Below are positions 17,931 to 23,851 of a stretch of 64,000 bases of DNA, piece by piece (position 1 is the stretch's first letter; the number at the start of each line of letters is the position of its first letter). The notes beneath the pieces are model-generated. The model was given only the letters and a program-made list of their open reading frames with translations. It did no database searches and had not been told where the DNA came from. Position numbers and translations under genes: made by a program. The DNA comes from an uncultured virus (IMG/VR IMGVR_UViG_3300030390_001258) (taxonomy: Duplodnaviria > Heunggongvirae > Uroviricota > Caudoviricetes), in IMG/VR virus record IMGVR_UViG_3300030390_001258, one strand, 5' to 3'.

Positions 17931-18080
17931 TTAACTTCCGCAGTTTTCACAATTTTCTTGATCTTCTATAGAACAAGCTGGTTGATCCTTCTCCGTTAAA
18001 TCTTTCATGTAGTCTTCGAAAGCATTATTATCTCTCTTTATACATTTACATTCTTCATTTTTTCCACACTTACATGCCAT
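17931..18080 (-). CDS. 49-aa Cys-rich, metallothionein-like peptide
   Basis: Hand translation MACKCGKNEECKCIKRDNNAFEDYMKDLTEKDQPACSIEDQENCENCGS; A-rich leader. Confidence 0.65.
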   Translation of the reverse strand: MACKCGKNEECKCIKRDNNAFEDYMKDLTEKDQPACSIEDQENCENCGS

Positions 18081-18098
18081 AATTTTTTTATTTAGGGG

Positions 18099-18218
18099 TT
18101 AAAAAAGACCCCGTTGATAGCGAGGTCTTAGTGTTTTTCCGTACCTGTTCGAATGTAGTGCAATGGTGAAACACAGTGTGAAGACACCTGCCCAGCCAAC
18201 CGTTACTATAAAACTCAT
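18099..18218 (-). CDS. Possible 39-aa single-TM peptide (or sRNA) with its own promoter and terminator
   Basis: MSFIVTVGWAGVFTLCFTIALHSNRYGKTLRPRYQRGLF; TATCTTTG box at 18244-18251; hairpin AGACCTCG/CGGGGTCT plus T-run at 18101-18128. Confidence 0.35.
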   Translation of the reverse strand: MSFIVTVGWAGVFTLCFTIALHSNRYGKTLRPRYQRGLF

Positions 18219-18406
18219 AGGATAGCGAAATTCCTTGTCCCTACAAAGATAAATATCCTGGTAAGACTAAAAAATTTTTGGGGGGGAAATTTTAAAAATT
18301 TGTTTTAGGTGTGAGTGCAACAACCAACTCAAACGACGACCCCCATTGTTCTCTGGCGATGAGGTACCCCCCTCGAGTATTAACGAAGTTAAATATTAAA
18401 TTTCCT

Positions 18407-18682
18407 ATGGAAGATTTAGTCTATGTAATGCAGGTCCAAGAGCCTGCACCAAACAAATCTGATGTGCTAATGCAATCAGTTCAGTTCCTTCGCTTAGGCG
18501 ATAGGAAAGTATATAGCTCAAGAGTGTTTGAGCTAAATCTTTATAAGAAAGGCCAAGTAGTTGGCTTATCTCAAAAGACTATCAAGGATAAAGAGTACGA
18601 TGTACTTCATCCTATGGTTTCCAAGACAGAGTCTCGGAAAGCAGACAAAGCCATTCAGGCTGCGTCTACTGAAGAAAACTAG
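18407..18682 (+). CDS. Early hypothetical protein
   Basis: ORF 18311-18682; ATG at 18407 (MEDLVYVM) follows an AT-rich leader and is the more plausible start. Confidence 0.55.
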   Translation: MEDLVYVMQVQEPAPNKSDVLMQSVQFLRLGDRKVYSSRVFELNLYKKGQVVGLSQKTIKDKEYDVLHPMVSKTESRKADKAIQAASTEEN

Positions 18683-18699
18683 CATAGCTAGTTTTTTTT
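18675..18699 (+). terminator. Intrinsic terminator
   Basis: AAAACTAGC-ATA-GCTAGTTTT followed by a T-run. Confidence 0.6.
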
Positions 18700-19294
18700 A
18701 ATTAAAGTTTATGTGTGTGAGTGGTCACCAACCCTCTCGCACACCATATTGACATAAATCCCAATGTATACAATCTTGTTACATTGGATAGTATAACATT
18801 AACCTAACCAGGACTATATGCTCTTGGTTGCAAACAGAAGCACCTCGTAAATATAAAAAACCATCCTACGGACAAGGGTTGAGGTGTGGAGTTTGCGTAA
18901 CATTTGGCCCTAGCTATGGGAAAAGTAAGATACCTAAACGATGAGATAGCAACTTCTATAAAAGGTGGATAAATCTTACAGATATTGGAGAACACATGAA
19001 GGGGGATAAATGACTTGTTCATTAAACCTGGTGGAACTAGTTCTTGATACGTCGGTCCAGACCCTTATCAACACCTAAGCATGTGTATAAACTGCTTATT
19101 TATAAGTGATGCGTCAACCCAAATGACTCTCGGATGAAAGAGTATTTAACCTAACGATCGGTTAGATGGTTTGTGAAATAACTGTAAAACGCATCACATT
19201 AACAAAAAGCTCTGGCAAAAGCTTCAAGAGGTAGCAAGCTAATCGCTTGTTACTCTCATTGCTTTAAATTAATTCTAACTTAATCATTAACAAA

Positions 19295-19606
19295 ATGAAA
19301 AGACTAAACTACATTGTTCTTGGATTGTTAACTGTCTCTCTTATAGTATTGACAGACAAACTGCACTTAGCAGAAATGAGTGACAAGTTAATATGTACTC
19401 TACTATGGAGTATATATGCTGTTATAACTTATGCTAGTTATTTACTACAAACACGTGAGTGGGATTTCAAACCTCAACTTACATTTGGTTGGATTGTAGG
19501 AGTTGCAATAGCAATAGAAAAAACAAAAGGATATTCATTCTCCTATCAAATAGTATTACCTTTTATGGTAATTGAATTAGCATGGTATAAACAACAAGAA
19601 AACTAA
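19295..19606 (+). CDS. Small multi-pass membrane protein
   Basis: 103 aa with 3-4 hydrophobic segments. Confidence 0.65.
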   Translation: MKRLNYIVLGLLTVSLIVLTDKLHLAEMSDKLICTLLWSIYAVITYASYLLQTREWDFKPQLTFGWIVGVAIAIEKTKGYSFSYQIVLPFMVIELAWYKQQEN

Positions 19607-19608
19607 TC

Positions 19609-19815
19609 ATGGCACATCCAAAATATAAAAAAGCAATTAGACAAGAAAATGCACAAGAACGTGCTAAACTACGTACTGACTTTCTAAATGAACATGGCCT
19701 TAAAGGCTATGTTCAAATTAGACAAGCAATACAAAGTAAGCATCCTAGTGGTGCTGTAAAAGAGAAAGCTAAATTAGATAAACTAATTAGTAGACTTAAG
19801 CATCATGCTAAATGA
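19609..19815 (+). CDS. Basic hypothetical protein
   Basis: 68 aa ORF in the early operon. Confidence 0.55.
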   Translation: MAHPKYKKAIRQENAQERAKLRTDFLNEHGLKGYVQIRQAIQSKHPSGAVKEKAKLDKLISRLKHHAK

Positions 19816-19985
19816 TAGCAACTATAAACTGTTCAGAGTGTGGCCACAATAAAGGCCATACTCTTGAACACGTTGGTCATGATACACTTGCAGAATGCAG
19901 TAATTGTGACCACGTTAACGACGTAATAACTGAATATCCAATAACTAAACAAACATTAACAGACTTTTATAACAAAAAATCATGA
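19812..19985 (+). CDS. 57-aa Zn-ribbon protein
   Basis: Hand translation MIATINCSECGHNKGHTLEHVGHDTLAECSNCDHVND...; ATGA overlaps at both ends. Confidence 0.65.
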   Translation: MIATINCSECGHNKGHTLEHVGHDTLAECSNCDHVNDVITEYPITKQTLTDFYNKKS

Positions 19986-20338
19986 AAAACAAGGAAATTT
20001 ACAACATCGTAGAAGAAATCTCTAAAAGCCAAGAATTTACACAAAAAAGCTTCGAGTCTGATGATCCAGCAAAAATTATCAATGTATTAAGACAACATGT
20101 AAGTACATTAATAAGTGTAATTTCTCGACAAAGTCAAGAACATAAAGAACTACGAGAAGTAACTAATATGCTTCAAAAGATAGAGAAAGCTAAATCAAGG
20201 TTTGTAGAAAGAGCAATAGACTCTACTACAAAAGAAGACTATCATGATGTTATGCCTTATGGTGTAAAAGATAGAGACATAGTTAAAATACAATCTATCC
20301 ATGTTAAAAAAGTAGGTAAAATAGATATAGAAGACTAA
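19982..20338 (+). CDS. Hypothetical protein
   Basis: 118 aa ORF, translationally coupled. Confidence 0.55.
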   Translation: MKNKEIYNIVEEISKSQEFTQKSFESDDPAKIINVLRQHVSTLISVISRQSQEHKELREVTNMLQKIEKAKSRFVERAIDSTTKEDYHDVMPYGVKDRDIVKIQSIHVKKVGKIDIED

Positions 20339-20478
20339 TGTTCTTTGAAGATGCACAATTTGCTTGGGATTTATATAGTATAAATCCTGAGCTAACGTGT
20401 ACTTGTGATGAGGTTCATACTTGTCAACAATGTCACGAAGAAGAAAACCAAACAAACACTAAAGACACAAAATCATGA
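20338..20478 (+). CDS. 46-aa Cys-containing peptide (CTC...CQQC)
   Basis: Hand translation MFFEDAQFAWDLYSINPELTCTCDEVHTCQQCHEEENQ...; TAATG and ATGA overlaps. Confidence 0.6.
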   Translation: MFFEDAQFAWDLYSINPELTCTCDEVHTCQQCHEEENQTNTKDTKS

Positions 20479-20771
20479 ATAACGGACTTAACACAATAAC
20501 ATATCTAATAAACCAATTAGTAGACGTAAGAGTAGCTTGCCAATTTTGGATAGATAAAGATGAGAAAACTCAAGATCATATCAATGAACTTGAAGCAAAA
20601 CTAAAAACAAGTGAAACTGAAAGTTTACAAAAAGATGCGCTTATTTATGACCTTCAAAAAACAGATGGTCATGCAACTGCTCAAATTTATCAAAAAGAAC
20701 TTGTTAAAGCTGAAAAGCGTATAAAAGAGCTTGAACAAAGTGTTGAACAGCTTGAAATAGAATTACAGTAA
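20475..20771 (+). CDS. Coiled-coil hypothetical protein
   Basis: 98 aa, heptad-rich. Confidence 0.55.
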   Translation: MNNGLNTITYLINQLVDVRVACQFWIDKDEKTQDHINELEAKLKTSETESLQKDALIYDLQKTDGHATAQIYQKELVKAEKRIKELEQSVEQLEIELQ

Positions 20772-20919
20772 AAACGTAGAAAGGTCGTGATATTCGACGT
20801 ATTCCTAAGCATGAAGACAAAAGGCTTATTTATATAATACCTATGTTGGGCTATCTCATGGCTATGAAGAGATGCGGAGACCAATGTAACACCAACCTGT
20901 TAGGTGATAGGTATTTTAA

Positions 20920-20998
20920 TGCGCAATAGAGCAGTCAGGTCAGCTCACCAAGAATATCATAACCTTGGATGTCGTAGGTTCGAATCCTACTTGCGCAA
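20920..20998 (+). tRNA. tRNA-Met(CAT)-like gene with an expanded anticodon loop and no encoded CCA
   Basis: Acceptor TGCGCAA/TTGCGCA, D arm GAGC/GCTC, anticodon stem CCAAG/CTTGG with loop AATATCATAAC, T arm GTAGG-TTCGAAT-CCTAC. Confidence 0.8.
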
Positions 20999-21059
20999 CT
21001 AAAAAGGTTGCTAGTATACCTTCGAAACTAGCATAAACATTTAAATACATGTAAACAAC

Positions 21060-21647
21060 ATGGCTAATCAATTAAATTCAGGAACAAAAGATTCCTTAGA
21101 AAAAGGTCAAACGTTATTAGTTAACGCTAGACAAATTGCAAACGGTAAAATCCAATTAGCATTTGCAGAAGTTCTTAAGTCAGATAAAGTACAAAATGTA
21201 CTATCTATGCTCAACAAATCAGATGAACGATTTAGTTCAAAAGCTCGTATGTCTTGGCAATCCGCTGAGCCAACAGATGCTCAAGAATTACTTGGTATCA
21301 ACTTTGGTGCAGATGCTCCTTGGTATGACTCTGAGCGTGGTAAAATGCTTGACTTAGATGTTCTTAACCCTACTATGTATGACAAACGTTGTCGAATTGT
21401 TGTATCAGAAACCTTAAAAGGTACTGAGTGGCAATTAGAAAACTTAGAAAAGTCTGCTAAACGTAAAGGTAAAGACGGAGAATACATCACTCATGATGGT
21501 AACTATATATTTGCTAACACAGATGTAATACTTACTAATGAGTCAACTGATGATCTCCATGTATATCTACAACCTGATTCAGCTAACTTAGCTATTACAT
21601 CAGGTAAATCTGCTGTGTTTACAGAAGAAAATATGGATATGCTTTAG
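21060..21647 (+). CDS. Hypothetical protein, possibly ssDNA/nucleic-acid binding
   Basis: 195 aa, beta-rich with an acidic tail; precedes polA; function inferred only. Confidence 0.5.
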   Translation: MANQLNSGTKDSLEKGQTLLVNARQIANGKIQLAFAEVLKSDKVQNVLSMLNKSDERFSSKARMSWQSAEPTDAQELLGINFGADAPWYDSERGKMLDLDVLNPTMYDKRCRIVVSETLKGTEWQLENLEKSAKRKGKDGEYITHDGNYIFANTDVILTNESTDDLHVYLQPDSANLAITSGKSAVFTEENMDML

Positions 21648-21657
21648 TATTAATTAT

Positions 21658-21710
21658 GTTAAGACAGTGTAAGGTTTTATTTAACGCCTTGACGCCAACA
21701 CTGTCTTAAC
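21658..21710 (+). terminator. Long hairpin (terminator or RNase III-type site)
   Basis: GTTAAGACAGTGT ... ACACTGTCTTAAC perfect 13-bp inverted repeat followed by TTAATTTTT. Confidence 0.55.
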
Positions 21711-21725
21711 TTAATTTTTCTTATT

Positions 21726-21959
21726 ATGGGATATATGAAATGGATTTATGTTATGGTTGCAAATAACAGCTATCACATATTTAAAATGATGTATCAACAA
21801 GCAGTTGATAAAAATATATCAGCATTTATGTTCGAAGGTTCAGAAATTAAGACATCTTATGCTAAATTTGTATGTCAATACGTAGACAAACATTGTATGC
21901 CTGAATATGAAGAACATATGATTCAAAATCAAACAGAACCTGATTTTCCTTTCGAATGA
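21726..21959 (+). CDS. Hypothetical protein
   Basis: 77 aa, overlaps the polA start. Confidence 0.5.
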   Translation: MGYMKWIYVMVANNSYHIFKMMYQQAVDKNISAFMFEGSEIKTSYAKFVCQYVDKHCMPEYEEHMIQNQTEPDFPFE

Positions 21960-23851
21960 TATATTTTGTAAATTACAATGAACAGATCTTTGAGAGTAAG
22001 CAGTTTTTCCCTGCTACTCTTAAAGAAGCTGTTAACTACTGCGCATCTAAAAATGTATTAGCAGTAGATACAGAAACTACAGGTTTAGATTTTACACACG
22101 ATAACATTACCATGTTTCAGATTGGTGATGATGTACATCAATATGTTATAGATGTGCGTGATCATCCTATCAGTGTGTTTAAAGATATACTTGAATCAAA
22201 AGATATTGTTAAAATATTCCATAACAGTAAATTTGATCTAAACTTTATACGTAGTAACAGTGATATAAAATGTAACAACATTTATGACACTATGCTTGTA
22301 GAGAAAGTTATAAATTGTGGTAAAGGTCTTAGTAACAGTCTAAAAAATGTAGTTAAACGCTACCTCGACATAGACTTAGAGAAAGGAACTCAATCATCAT
22401 TTATCAACAATCAATACGCTCAATTTACAACAAGTCAAATTATTTATGGTGCTAATGATGTTAAATATCTTATGGAAATAAGAGATAAACAAGAATCAGC
22501 TATCATAAAAAATAAACTAGAAAATGTTGTAGAATTAGAGAATAAATCTGTGTTAGCATTTGCTGATATAGAATATAATGGCCTTGAATTAGATAAAGAT
22601 AAGTGGGTTGCGTTAAGTAAGAAATCGCTTGTAAAAGCTGTATCACTTAAAGACACACTTAATCAGCATATAATAGAGGACCATAGAATGCAAAAGTTCA
22701 TACCTACATTTGTACAAGGAGATTTATTTGACACTGTTGACAAACAAATAGATGTCAATTGGGATTCACCTAAACAAGTGCTCGATGTATTTCAATGCAT
22801 TGTACCTAAACTAGAGAATGTAAACGGTAAAGGTCTGTATAAATACAGAAACAAATTCCCTCTTATAAATACTTACATCACATACAAGGAAAAGATGAAG
22901 ATAGCTACAAGCTATGGCGAAGCCTTCCTTAAGAATGTGCGTAAGAGTGGTAAAATACACACAAGCTTTAATCAAATACTTGACACTGGGCGTGTTAGTA
23001 GTTCTAGACCAAATATGCAGCAAATACCTGCAGACAATGCGTTTAGAAACTGCTTCATTGCACCTGATGGATGGTCGTTTGTGAGTGCTGACTATGCTTC
23101 CCAAGAACTGAATGTCATAGCTTTTGGTAGCCAAGATCCCGTGTGGATTAAAGCGTTAGAAGAAGGTCAGGACTTACACTCAACCTGTGCTGATTTAGTT
23201 TATGGTAAAGAGTGGTATGAAGCCGCTGAAGAGGACTGTGCTTATTTTGTAGGCGATGCTAAACTTAAATGTGAATGCTTTGGGCACAAGAAATTGCGTA
23301 CTAATGTAAAGACTATTAACTTTGGTCTTGCATATGGTATGGGCCCTAACAAGCTTGCTGATACATTACAAATATCTAAAGACGATGCAAAAAAACTCAT
23401 TGAAGATTACTTCAGTGCGTTCCCTAACATCAAAGGGTTCCTTGAGAAACTAGCTGACTTCGGTAAGCATTATGGTTACATCAAGACTTTCCCACCATTT
23501 AACCGCCGTCGTTGGTTTGTTACTTGGTTCCCAAAGATATGGAATGATGACTCAGCATCAATGGAGCTTAGCAGTATTGAGCGTGCATCGAAGAATACAC
23601 CAATTCAAGGTGCATCAGCAGATATGACTAAACTTGCGCTTGTGTATATTTACGAGTATTTGGCTGATAAGAATTTACCGGTCAAGATAGTGATGACTGT
23701 GCATGATCAAATAGATAGTATTTGTAGAGACGATTACATTGAGAAATGGTCAAAAACTCTTACATATCTAATGGAGAAAGCAGCAAACAAAGTAGTTACT
23801 AATGGTCTGCTTAAAGCAGATGTAAACGCAAGTAAAGTATGGGAGAAATAG
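21956..23851 (+). CDS. polA: Family A DNA polymerase with 3'-5' exonuclease
   Basis: Exo motifs DTETTGL, HNSKFD and YGANDV; polymerase motifs TGRVSSSRPNMQQIP, ADYASQE, KTINFGLAYG, NTPIQG and VHDQ. Confidence 0.95.
   Translation: MIYFVNYNEQIFESKQFFPATLKEAVNYCASKNVLAVDTETTGLDFTHDNITMFQIGDDVHQYVIDVRDHPISVFKDILESKDIVKIFHNSKFDLNFIRSNSDIKCNNIYDTMLVEKVINCGKGLSNSLKNVVKRYLDIDLEKGTQSSFINNQYAQFTTSQIIYGANDVKYLMEIRDKQESAIIKNKLENVVELENKSVLAFADIEYNGLELDKDKWVALSKKSLVKAVSLKDTLNQHIIEDHRMQKFIPTFVQGDLFDTVDKQIDVNWDSPKQVLDVFQCIVPKLENVNGKGLYKYRNKFPLINTYITYKEKMKIATSYGEAFLKNVRKSGKIHTSFNQILDTGRVSSSRPNMQQIPADNAFRNCFIAPDGWSFVSADYASQELNVIAFGSQDPVWIKALEEGQDLHSTCADLVYGKEWYEAAEEDCAYFVGDAKLKCECFGHKKLRTNVKTINFGLAYGMGPNKLADTLQISKDDAKKLIEDYFSAFPNIKGFLEKLADFGKHYGYIKTFPPFNRRRWFVTWFPKIWNDDSASMELSSIERASKNTPIQGASADMTKLALVYIYEYLADKNLPVKIVMTVHDQIDSICRDDYIEKWSKTLTYLMEKAANKVVTNGLLKADVNASKVWEK

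Follow-up and report, generated by a model that had tools for sequence, protein, structure and literature searches.

Two short repeated elements in a 64,000-nucleotide (nt) stretch of DNA from an uncultured virus (IMG/VR record IMGVR_UViG_3300030390_001258), hereafter the window, appear from sequence comparisons to be members of a widespread and apparently uncatalogued family of phage RNA pseudoknots of ~34 nt. An earlier note, made from the letters of the window, had described both elements as conserved H-type pseudoknots, each forming one unit with a multibranch RNA domain that follows it. We found that the two helices of the knot, stem 1 (S1) and stem 2 (S2), covary across many unrelated phages, which bears out the conserved pseudoknot, and we are highly confident that an H-type knot forms at the RNA level. 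The proposed unit of knot and domain fared differently and is discussed below.

The window comes from a crAss-like phage, as judged from its large open reading frames (ORFs), a family-B DNA polymerase and a terminase that shares ~42% identity with crAss-like phage terminases, and the sequencing runs containing this stretch are marine metagenomes. The locus lies at the junction between leftward structural genes and rightward early and replication genes, where there is much non-coding sequence. A megablast search with positions 18000-22000 against GenBank phages gave no match.

Both window copies have the same fold

The pattern CCTAAGCATG-N10-GCTTATTTATA is present in two exact copies with identical spacing on the + strand, at 19074-19104 and 20804-20834, as the earlier note had reported. 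In 100 dinucleotide shuffles there was no match even with up to 3 mismatches allowed, and an exact-motif scan of phage contigs returned only L001 and L002, which are fragments of the window phage. A covariance model, R1, scored copy 1 at 51.0 bits and copy 2 at 48.8 bits; these values are not independent, because R1 was built with both window copies included. The pairings of S1 and S2 that had been proposed for the two copies are present and are arranged, together with the unpaired parts (loop 1, L1; the A-rich linker, L3; and the tail), as follows.

19071..19104, + strand: pseudoknot copy 1 (sequence reading, exact repeat, model R1)
19071-19074 ACAC / 19083-19086 GTGT, + strand: S1 of copy 1 (sequence reading)
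19076-19081 TAAGCA / 19093-19098 TGCTTA, + strand: S2 of copy 1 (sequence reading)
C19075, 19087-92 and 19099-104, + strand: L1, A-rich linker and U-rich tail of copy 1
20801..20834, + strand: pseudoknot copy 2 (sequence reading, exact repeat, model R1)
20802-20804 TTC / 20813-20815 GAA, + strand: S1 of copy 2, 3 base pairs (bp), with A.G at the fourth position
20806-20810 TAAGC / 20824-20828 GCTTA, + strand: S2 of copy 2
C20805, 20817-23 and 20829-34, + strand: L1, linker and tail of copy 2

In the fold proposed for the family, a 4-bp S1 hairpin, whose sequence is free to vary, is closed by an invariant C-G pair, and a 1-nt C loop (L1) leads from S1 to S2. The 4-6 bp of S2 form between the hairpin loop and the strand 3' of an A-rich linker of 6-7 nt (L3) that contains AAA, and a U-rich tail (UUUAU...) directly follows the 3' strand of S2. 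By direct reading and by R1, both window copies have all of these features. The nested fold of copy 2 has a predicted energy of only -2.6 kcal/mol (z 0.05).

S1 and S2 covary across phages

The collection, drawn from the DNA of phages, prophages and metagenomes, comprises 107 distinct instances, many of them close relatives of one another, with 31 types of S1 and 17 types of S2. A first pattern, with fixed CCTAAGCA and GCTT(N)ATTTAT, matched 37 phage-contig loci; two are fragments of the window phage, one is a close relative, one is a probable chance match, and the remainder share the whole motif. In these loci the 4 nt 5' of CTAAGCA pair with the 4 nt 3' of it, in combinations as different as TGAC/GTCA, CAAC/GTTG, TGTC/GACA, ATTC/GAAT, CGTC/GACG, AATC/GATT, AGTC/GACT, CGAC/GTCG, CGCC/GGCG and ACAC/GTGT. 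The 37-row alignment (A3) has changes on both sides in three of the four S1 pairs, and the number of double-change cells in S1 was 38 compared with 12.4 in shuffles, none of 500 shuffles reaching 38.

A second pattern left S2 free and matched 70 phage loci with 16 combinations of S2 strands, most of them TAGAC paired with GTCT followed by T, C or A (47 loci), then TAAGC/GCTTA (6), TGAGC/GCTTT (4), CGAGC/GCTCA (3), TGAGC/GCTCA (1) and others. Searching with a covariance model, as had been suggested alongside the first description, found homologues with compensatory changes in both helices. The R1 alignment holds 100 matches, 75 of them distinct; R1 carries S1 and not S2, and the fit of the alignment therefore favours S1. 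For the full knot, 86.4% of the cells in this alignment are paired, compared with at most 57.7% when the partners are slid. Double changes affect three of four S1 pairs and three of six S2 pairs, and sum to 120 cells versus 36.4 +/- 4.1 in shuffles, of which none in 500 reaches 120.

Because pairing is weak at the outermost positions of S2 (42 of 74 cells for U-A and 15 of 70 for A-U), we take the core of S2 to be 4 bp. Much of the S2 signal comes from the split between the two major types, which may represent one event. The rarer types add independent changes, namely TGAGC/GCTCA, TAAAC/GTTTA in locus L039 and TGAGT/GCTCA in phage phig1e, and by eye AGCC/GGCT in BCJA1c. The junction loop L2 measures 1-2 nt and is variable (A, U, C or two bases). 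The bases of the loop, linker and tail are invariant across phyla, although all collecting searches fixed part of the motif, so that the invariance of linker and tail is possibly overstated and the limits of the family are uncertain. Since G.U pairs, as in TGTC/GACG and TGAGC/GCTTT, are possible only on the strand that is sense for the flanking genes, the RNA would be made from that strand.

In five loci of one Bacillota subfamily (L126, L134, L155, L178 and L140), a stretch ~55-70 nt 3' of the knot (for example GTCTAAAGGACG) is complementary to the 5' strands of S1 and S2 and lies ~10 nt 5' of a ribosome-binding site. As read from these sequences, it may provide an alternative pairing.

The motif is apparently undescribed

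The earlier note had been unable to name a family for the element, and our searches of the catalogue agree with this. Rfam 15 gave no match on the knot in either window copy at the gathering score or at E values up to 10, nor in 20, 14 and 10 further loci at E values up to 1, 0.1 and 1, respectively. The models without a match include those of the pistol, twister, twister-sister, hatchet, hammerhead and hepatitis delta virus (HDV) ribozymes over the same sets and cut-offs, and those of preQ1-I (RF00522) and other riboswitches, for the window region (E up to 10) and 20 further loci. GP20-a and GP20-b did not match the knot in the further loci searched; a GP20-b-like match at L118:1548-1609 (34.4 bits, cut-off 36.2) adjoins the knot at L118:1501-1546, 2 nt away. 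In a full-text literature search with the letters of the motif, the matches listed were unrelated primers, and the motif was not found in the supplements of PMC10690425 in a search that covered neither three of the files nor the alignment files of 10,006 candidate RNAs. Judged on Rfam 15 and these limited literature searches, the motif is apparently undescribed. A stimulator of -1 frameshifting or readthrough would lie 5-9 nt after a slippery heptamer or a leaky stop codon, within or at the end of an ORF continued in another frame; copy 1 has no + strand ORF upstream.

The knot occurs in several phyla in one or two copies per genome

Within a set of one genome per species, the first pattern matched 48 loci, 11 of which we judged to be true members, that is, to have a paired S1 and an A-rich linker. 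These are from Gracilibacillus, Tuberibacillus, Oceanobacillus (2), Cytobacillus, Siminovitchia (2) and Virgibacillus and, outside the genera of Bacillaceae, from metagenome-assembled genomes of Patescibacteria, Ignavibacteria and Rubrivivax. The other 37 loci have 0-3 S1 pairs (three of them have 3) and no A-rich linker, which is the profile of chance matches. When 151 genomes were sampled from the Bacillaceae-level family to which the Oceanobacillus genome belongs, R1 matched 10 of them. A metagenome scan yielded at least 121 loci, at least 97 of them distinct; among the matches listed, 61 have three or more S1 pairs and 36 have two or fewer. Searching GenBank phages by blastn with the 50-nt knot gave 11 weak records, and the three true carriers among them are Latilactobacillus phages. 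Lactobacillus phages KC5a and phig1e have weak R1 matches (20.8 and 15.3 bits) in which both helices are intact, and a search for relatives via the Oceanobacillus scaffold protein led to only 2 loci.

Genomes with the knot contain one or two copies, the complete 88.5-kb relative of the window phage, G005, having one. Second copies are present in L113, L034, L039, L152, L236 and L258/L259, and in several phages they are 165-760 nt away from the first. R1 found no knot in G003, SPP1, A118 and phi14:2.

The knot lies between genes and in Bacillota prophages usually precedes scaffold or tail-tube genes

The knot occupies intergenic positions and has the same orientation as the neighbouring genes. 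In many instances it starts 0-12 nt after the upstream stop codon, the distance ranging from 0 to 195 nt, with a terminator hairpin in between in several instances; a canonical terminator stands just 5' of the knot in several Bacillota instances, and in only 7 of the 107 by a strict rule. The next start codon is 20-280 nt 3' of the knot, and a co-oriented ORF starts within 330 nt downstream in 44 of 47 loci checked (including one probable chance match and two window-phage fragments). When 29 downstream ORFs were compared with Pfam, eight matched Phage_scaffold, two the DUF4355 scaffold family, three tail tube proteins and one DUF6948; one further ORF had a sub-threshold match and 14 had none or only a weak coiled-coil match. 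In Bacillota prophages, the knot is usually just 5' of scaffold or tail-tube genes. Of 79 instances not chosen for this feature, 26 have a start codon 7 nt 3' of S2 (ATG in 19, TTG in 6, GTG in 1); the other 53 and both window copies have none at this position.

In Latilactobacillus phage TMW 1.591 P1 the genes that flank the knot are those for the minor capsid and scaffold proteins. At the equivalent place, other phages have a stable structure of another kind with a U-rich tract after it. In Streptococcus phage Javan633 this is a plain hairpin, whose tail is the same UUUUUAUUAUG; in SPP1, whose leader is homologous to the Oceanobacillus leader, tRNA-like elements and a T-arm helix plus U5 stand 5' of the leader. 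Table 2 of PMC6316719 lists this helix as a predicted terminator with -5.5 kcal/mol, and the same source states that no late-promoter consensus was found for SPP1.

Contigs from RNA libraries (four metatranscriptome runs of two studies) span 18902-19155 (the deepest), 18936-19445, 18993-19197, 19673-20916 and 20539-20879, and hence cross both knot copies; positions 18716-18900 are without contig cover in these runs, which is uninformative on transcription there. As the contigs show no strand, ends or levels and may include DNA, they are a weak sign that the knot resides inside a longer RNA and is not an efficient terminator.

The neighbouring 9-bp domains are separate modules

Downstream of each knot is a domain closed by a 9-bp stem that starts 8 nt after the knot.

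19106..19197, + strand: domain 1, 9-bp closing stem (19106-19114 / 19189-19197) around three hairpins
20836..20915, + strand: domain 2, 9-bp closing stem (20836-20844 / 20907-20915) around an inner fold

These stems, and the CTC..ATGAA..GAG hairpins and TGTAA words inside both domains, are present as the earlier note had described them. Domain 1 has a fold of -25.8 kcal/mol (z -3.13) that none of 200 shuffles equalled, and the fold of domain 2 is unremarkable (z -1.17; 26 of 200 shuffles as good). In L004 and L005, relatives reached via a 195-aa protein encoded downstream (79% identity), domain 1 is 92-93% identical and lies directly 3' of a promoter-like region, with no knot; its middle hairpin in L004 has a paired deletion, AACC/GGTT to ACC/GGT. 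Domain 2 is found in L016 (from the complete relative G005) and L330 behind other sequences and with no knot preceding it, the single knot of G005 being 380 nt beyond domain 2 and directly 5' of an ORF. Across three phages, the inner hairpin of domain 2 changes from CACC/GGTG to CATC/GGTG to CATC/GATG (C-G to U.G to U-A), and its closing pair changes from T-A to T.G. On these comparisons, both domains are probably real RNA modules in their own right.

In the 71 family members whose downstream sequence extends for 120 nt or more, we looked for a closing helix that begins no more than 15 nt after the knot; the best one had a mean length of 7.01 bp, compared with 6.89 bp in shuffles. Because this is no better than in shuffles, the family is not characterized by a closing stem 3' of the knot. 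The domains are separate cargo modules that adjoin the knot only by local arrangement, and the claim that knot and multibranch domain make up one unit has to be given up, since domains 1 and 2 both occur without the knot and the test on 71 members was null. What stands of the functional RNA module proposed earlier is the knot, which is conserved and functional-looking; its link to a covarying 9-bp domain does not.

The surrounding region has a mosaic structure

The region around both knot copies reads, at the sequence level, as a mosaic of RNA modules, with the following further features.

18806..19104, + strand: extra non-coding block of ~298 nt that ends with knot copy 1 and is missing from L004 and L005
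18805-18903, + strand: two-hairpin module of 100 nt, the first part of this block (fold z -2.94)
19295..20771, + strand: six small ORFs (103, 68, 57, 118, 46 and 98 aa) between the two knot copies (ORF list)
20920-20998, + strand: tRNA with an 11-nt anticodon loop containing CAU (Rfam tRNA, 51.6 bits), 4 nt after domain 2

A PHROG scan assigned none of the six small ORFs to a family; homologues of the small ORFs are present in L004 and L005. The two-hairpin module is 95% identical in G003 and G004 (L014, L015), where both the preceding ORF and the following sequence are others. The non-coding block of the window has a parallel in phage phi14:2, for which bioRxiv 10.1101/2020.03.07.982082 reports early non-coding RNAs in abundance where the early region begins.

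A promoter-like stretch at 18743-18800 consists of TTGACAT, an inverted repeat and TATAAC, and a similar stretch is present at L016:489-534. The sequence of the inverted repeat differs between phages and its complementarity is kept (CCAATGTA..TACATTGG versus CAATAGA..TCTATTG); the stretch is directly 5' of the first RNA module or of the tRNA. At 21006-21032, a hairpin with the sequence GCTAGT-N11-ACTAGC is identical, with its flanks, in six phage-contig loci from five phages, one of the loci being a fragment of the window phage itself. It precedes the gene of the 195-aa protein, and everything 5' of it is variable. At the site of copy 2, relatives have a variant knot, a plain hairpin, or only tRNA-like acceptor and T-arm helices. 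An 11-bp direct repeat, ATTCGACGTAT, around the variant in L004 was considered as a target duplication and dropped, as the window copy has no second repeat.

That the unit of copy 2 ends just before a tRNA, as had been reported, is confirmed by Rfam; ARAGORN does not call this tRNA. Its anticodon loop is AAUAUCAUAAC. At L016:535-610 the homologue has a 7-nt loop and is a normal tRNA-Met(CAT), from which it follows that the tRNA in the window carries a 4-nt loop expansion around CAU. The 15 nt just 5' of copy 2 (20781-20795) are complementary to the anticodon arm at 20952-20966, ~160 nt apart, with 13 Watson-Crick pairs and one G.U pair, and the upstream words complementary to the arm are unchanged in L004, which is without that arm. 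One RNA-library contig leaves the window sequence at 20916, after domain 2, and continues as the relative L330, which implies that the sampled community also contains a recombinant variant lacking the tRNA.

At the position of the tRNA, four relatives have minihelices of ~40 nt composed of an acceptor stem and a T arm with no D or anticodon arm (L004:3897-3945; L005:2447-2487; L006, - strand, 2540-2580; L008:2452-2495), whose T stem covaries (GTAGG/CCTAC versus GCAGG/CCTGC). tRNA-Leu-like elements, called by neither ARAGORN nor Rfam, are located at L195:530-690 (SPP1, 5' of gene 11) and L113:1375-1512 (- strand). They comprise a D-arm-like GGCGGAATAGGTAGACGC, a T-arm-like GGTGCAAATCC and a closing stem, and are placed in the scaffold-gene leader of SPP1 and between the two knot copies of an Oceanobacillus prophage. 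Linkage to tRNAs was rejected as a general feature of the knot, because ARAGORN found a tRNA in the flanks of only 1 of the 107 instances.

Discussion

We tentatively propose, by analogy, that the knot could be a structural boundary which needs no partner and shapes the processing and stability of the neighbouring RNA. A compact knot of the triple-helix type would act without a phage-specific partner within a polycistronic or leader RNA. The stable block beside an A/U-rich single strand would mark an RNA cut site or a stop for exonucleases, and this boundary would set the stability of the adjoining RNA, which would be the mRNA for scaffold, capsid and tail-tube proteins in Bacillota prophages and the early small-gene operon, the folded modules and the tRNA in the window phage. 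We favour a boundary because the build of the knot resembles that of stable triple-helix knots, other phages place a structure and a U-rich tract at the same site, and L2 is variable.

Classical knots with a 1-nt C loop over the deep groove of S2 and an A-rich loop in the minor groove of S1 are very stable, examples being the luteovirid frameshift knots and preQ1-I. The luteovirid -1 frameshift knots and the preQ1-I aptamer have the same order of parts as the phage knot (S1-L1-S2-L2-S1-L3-S2), and share with it the size of ~30-35 nt, the single-C L1 and the A-rich L3. The phage knot differs from the luteovirid knots in having no slippery site or ORF running into it, and from preQ1-I in its variable L2, the fixed U-rich tail that follows, and the absence of a que-gene context and of a PreQ1 match. 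GP20-a (RF02991) and GP20-b (RF03003), described together with six further GP20 gene leaders in PMC10690425, occupy the same place, the Phage_scaffold leader of Bacillota prophages. Neither model covers the knot, however, and the knot also precedes tail-tube genes and small unassigned genes and occurs in a crAss-like phage. The translational operator of T4 gene 32 has a 5' pseudoknot and an A/U-rich single strand that reaches to the start codon (outlined in PMC10690425), and likewise some of the phage knots, small 5' structures followed by an A/U-rich stretch, have a start codon 7 nt after S2. In contrast to the T4 operator, which is bound by one autoregulating protein and serves one gene, the phage knot precedes many unrelated genes in phages from several host phyla.

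Several points weigh against a boundary function. What argues for the mechanism is position and analogy, and the invariant loop bases and the tail, whose invariance is possibly overstated by the way in which the family was collected, would be equally compatible with a bound factor or with catalysis. Intrinsic terminators, too, are recognized by a stable structure with a U-rich tract directly after it, and the SPP1 counterpart is listed as a predicted terminator. The layout of a terminator followed by the knot is not general, the start codon 7 nt after S2 hints at a translational role in Bacillota phages, and the RNA-library contigs have the limits given above.

It is somewhat unlikely that the knot is a factor-independent terminator, attenuator or pause signal that insulates the downstream from the upstream unit, the exit of the 3' strand of S2 from the polymerase creating a stacked helix of ~10 bp against the U-rich tract. 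The 3' strand of S2 abuts UUUAU in all instances, which is less telling as the patterns required TTTAT. The start of many knots 0-12 nt after a stop codon would suit termination, as would the apparently convergent next genes in L067, the hairpin with the same tail in Javan633, the predicted terminator in SPP1, and the universality of RNA polymerase, which would permit use across phyla. Like the knot, intrinsic terminators combine a stable structure with a U-rich tract directly 3' of it, in many cases close behind a stop codon, but they have a G+C-rich hairpin that ends 7-9 nt before the RNA 3' end, need no invariant loops or linker and occur in many copies per genome, whereas the knot is present once or twice and, by R1, in none of G003, SPP1, A118 and phi14:2. 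Moreover, the helices of the knot are short and A/U-rich, and copy 2 has a poor nested fold; a canonical terminator already stands directly 5' of the knot in several Bacillota instances, and the knot precedes the most abundantly needed gene products. None of the five RNA-library contigs that cross the copies stops at the tail, which is weak evidence, as ends are not visible in contigs.

Less likely still, and read from sequence, is that the knot might be a docking site for a conserved host factor. Candidates would be the ribosome or its protein S1, with the knot as a translational operator or enhancer, or a tRNA-processing enzyme reading S1 and S2 as a mimic of an acceptor arm. The tRNA-like ends of plant viruses are a precedent for acceptor-arm mimicry. 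The invariant bases of loop, linker and tail across phyla are consistent with docking, and in the 26 of 79 instances with ATG, TTG or GTG 7 nt after S2 there is AAAAGG 10 nt 5' of the start codon; in TMW 1.591 P1, this ATG is annotated as the scaffold start. Helices like those of tRNAs replace or flank the knot in SPP1, L113 and relatives of the window phage, and copy 2 is 85 nt before a tRNA. However, both window copies and the majority of the unselected instances lack such a start codon, the small ORFs that follow are variable in length (by eye), a tRNA in the flanks is exceptional, and the knot has no T-loop. A further reading, which we consider quite unlikely, would make the knot the core of a new type of RNA device that does not depend on the host, either a new class of small self-cleaving ribozymes or an acceptor-arm mimic for the universal tRNA-processing enzymes, which as a portable cassette would punctuate long transcripts in phages of at least 3-4 bacterial phyla and release stable mRNAs, small RNAs and tRNAs.

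By analogy with known ribozymes, the knot could form the core of a small self-cleaving ribozyme, in which knot, tail and adjoining hairpin would cut the transcript and separate RNA modules; we consider this improbable. Small size, covarying stems around invariant unpaired bases and a cross-phylum distribution, mainly in phages, fit a ribozyme, two nearby copies are frequent, and the order of hairpin, A-rich linker and loop-pairing strand presumably recalls the 5' half of pistol ribozymes. Against this, there was no match to the Rfam ribozyme models, nothing is conserved beyond the tail that could supply a second strand or an active site, and RNA-library contigs cross the knot.

A signal at the DNA level, such as a promoter, including the 'middle promoter' motif of crAss-like phages, or a protein operator, is most improbable. 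The intergenic position upstream of genes and a tail resembling TATTAT or TATAAT in many instances would agree with it, but interleaved compensatory changes in two helices and strand-specific G.U pairs are unexpected for a site in duplex DNA. A promoter of the sigma-70 type was rejected, as there is no acceptable -35/-10 spacing by eye, the -35-like and -10-like words being at least 19 bp apart by reading. For phi14:2, bioRxiv 10.1101/2020.03.07.982082 describes a tripartite middle-promoter motif (Drobysheva et al.), often upstream of tRNA genes, and at least four mapped middle promoters, upstream of g070, g075, g108 and g110. The best R1 match over all 100,418 bp of phi14:2 (15.9 bits, E 0.38) is inside g065, and because R1 finds no knot in this phage, we rejected the identity of knot and middle promoter, a judgement made without the motif's own sequence. 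A ligand-sensing riboswitch of the preQ1-I type, folding of which would hide or expose the following sequence, is just as improbable: the order of short P1, loop, A-rich tail and P2 is as in preQ1-I and the junction of linker and S2 in Bacillota (AAAAGG) resembles a ribosome-binding site, but no riboswitch model matched, an L2 of 1-2 nt that varies, where preQ1-I has a conserved ligand-pairing C, leaves no apparent conserved pocket, the downstream genes are structural or of no assigned kind and not metabolic, and the real gene start has its own strong ribosome-binding site 30-280 nt away.

Overall, the conservation of the knot across hosts, from a marine crAss-like phage to prophages of Bacillus, Lactobacillus and candidate phyla, points to a partner or a physical property that is common to all bacteria; small knots with fixed loops over such a host range are rare. 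The family is a well-supported candidate for catalogues of RNA families. As a short, portable element that is present in cultured phages, the knot might serve as a compact RNA part for engineering. In Bacillota phages it stands where the most heavily expressed structural genes begin, and it could explain part of the boosting of scaffold, capsid and tail-tube genes within long late transcripts.

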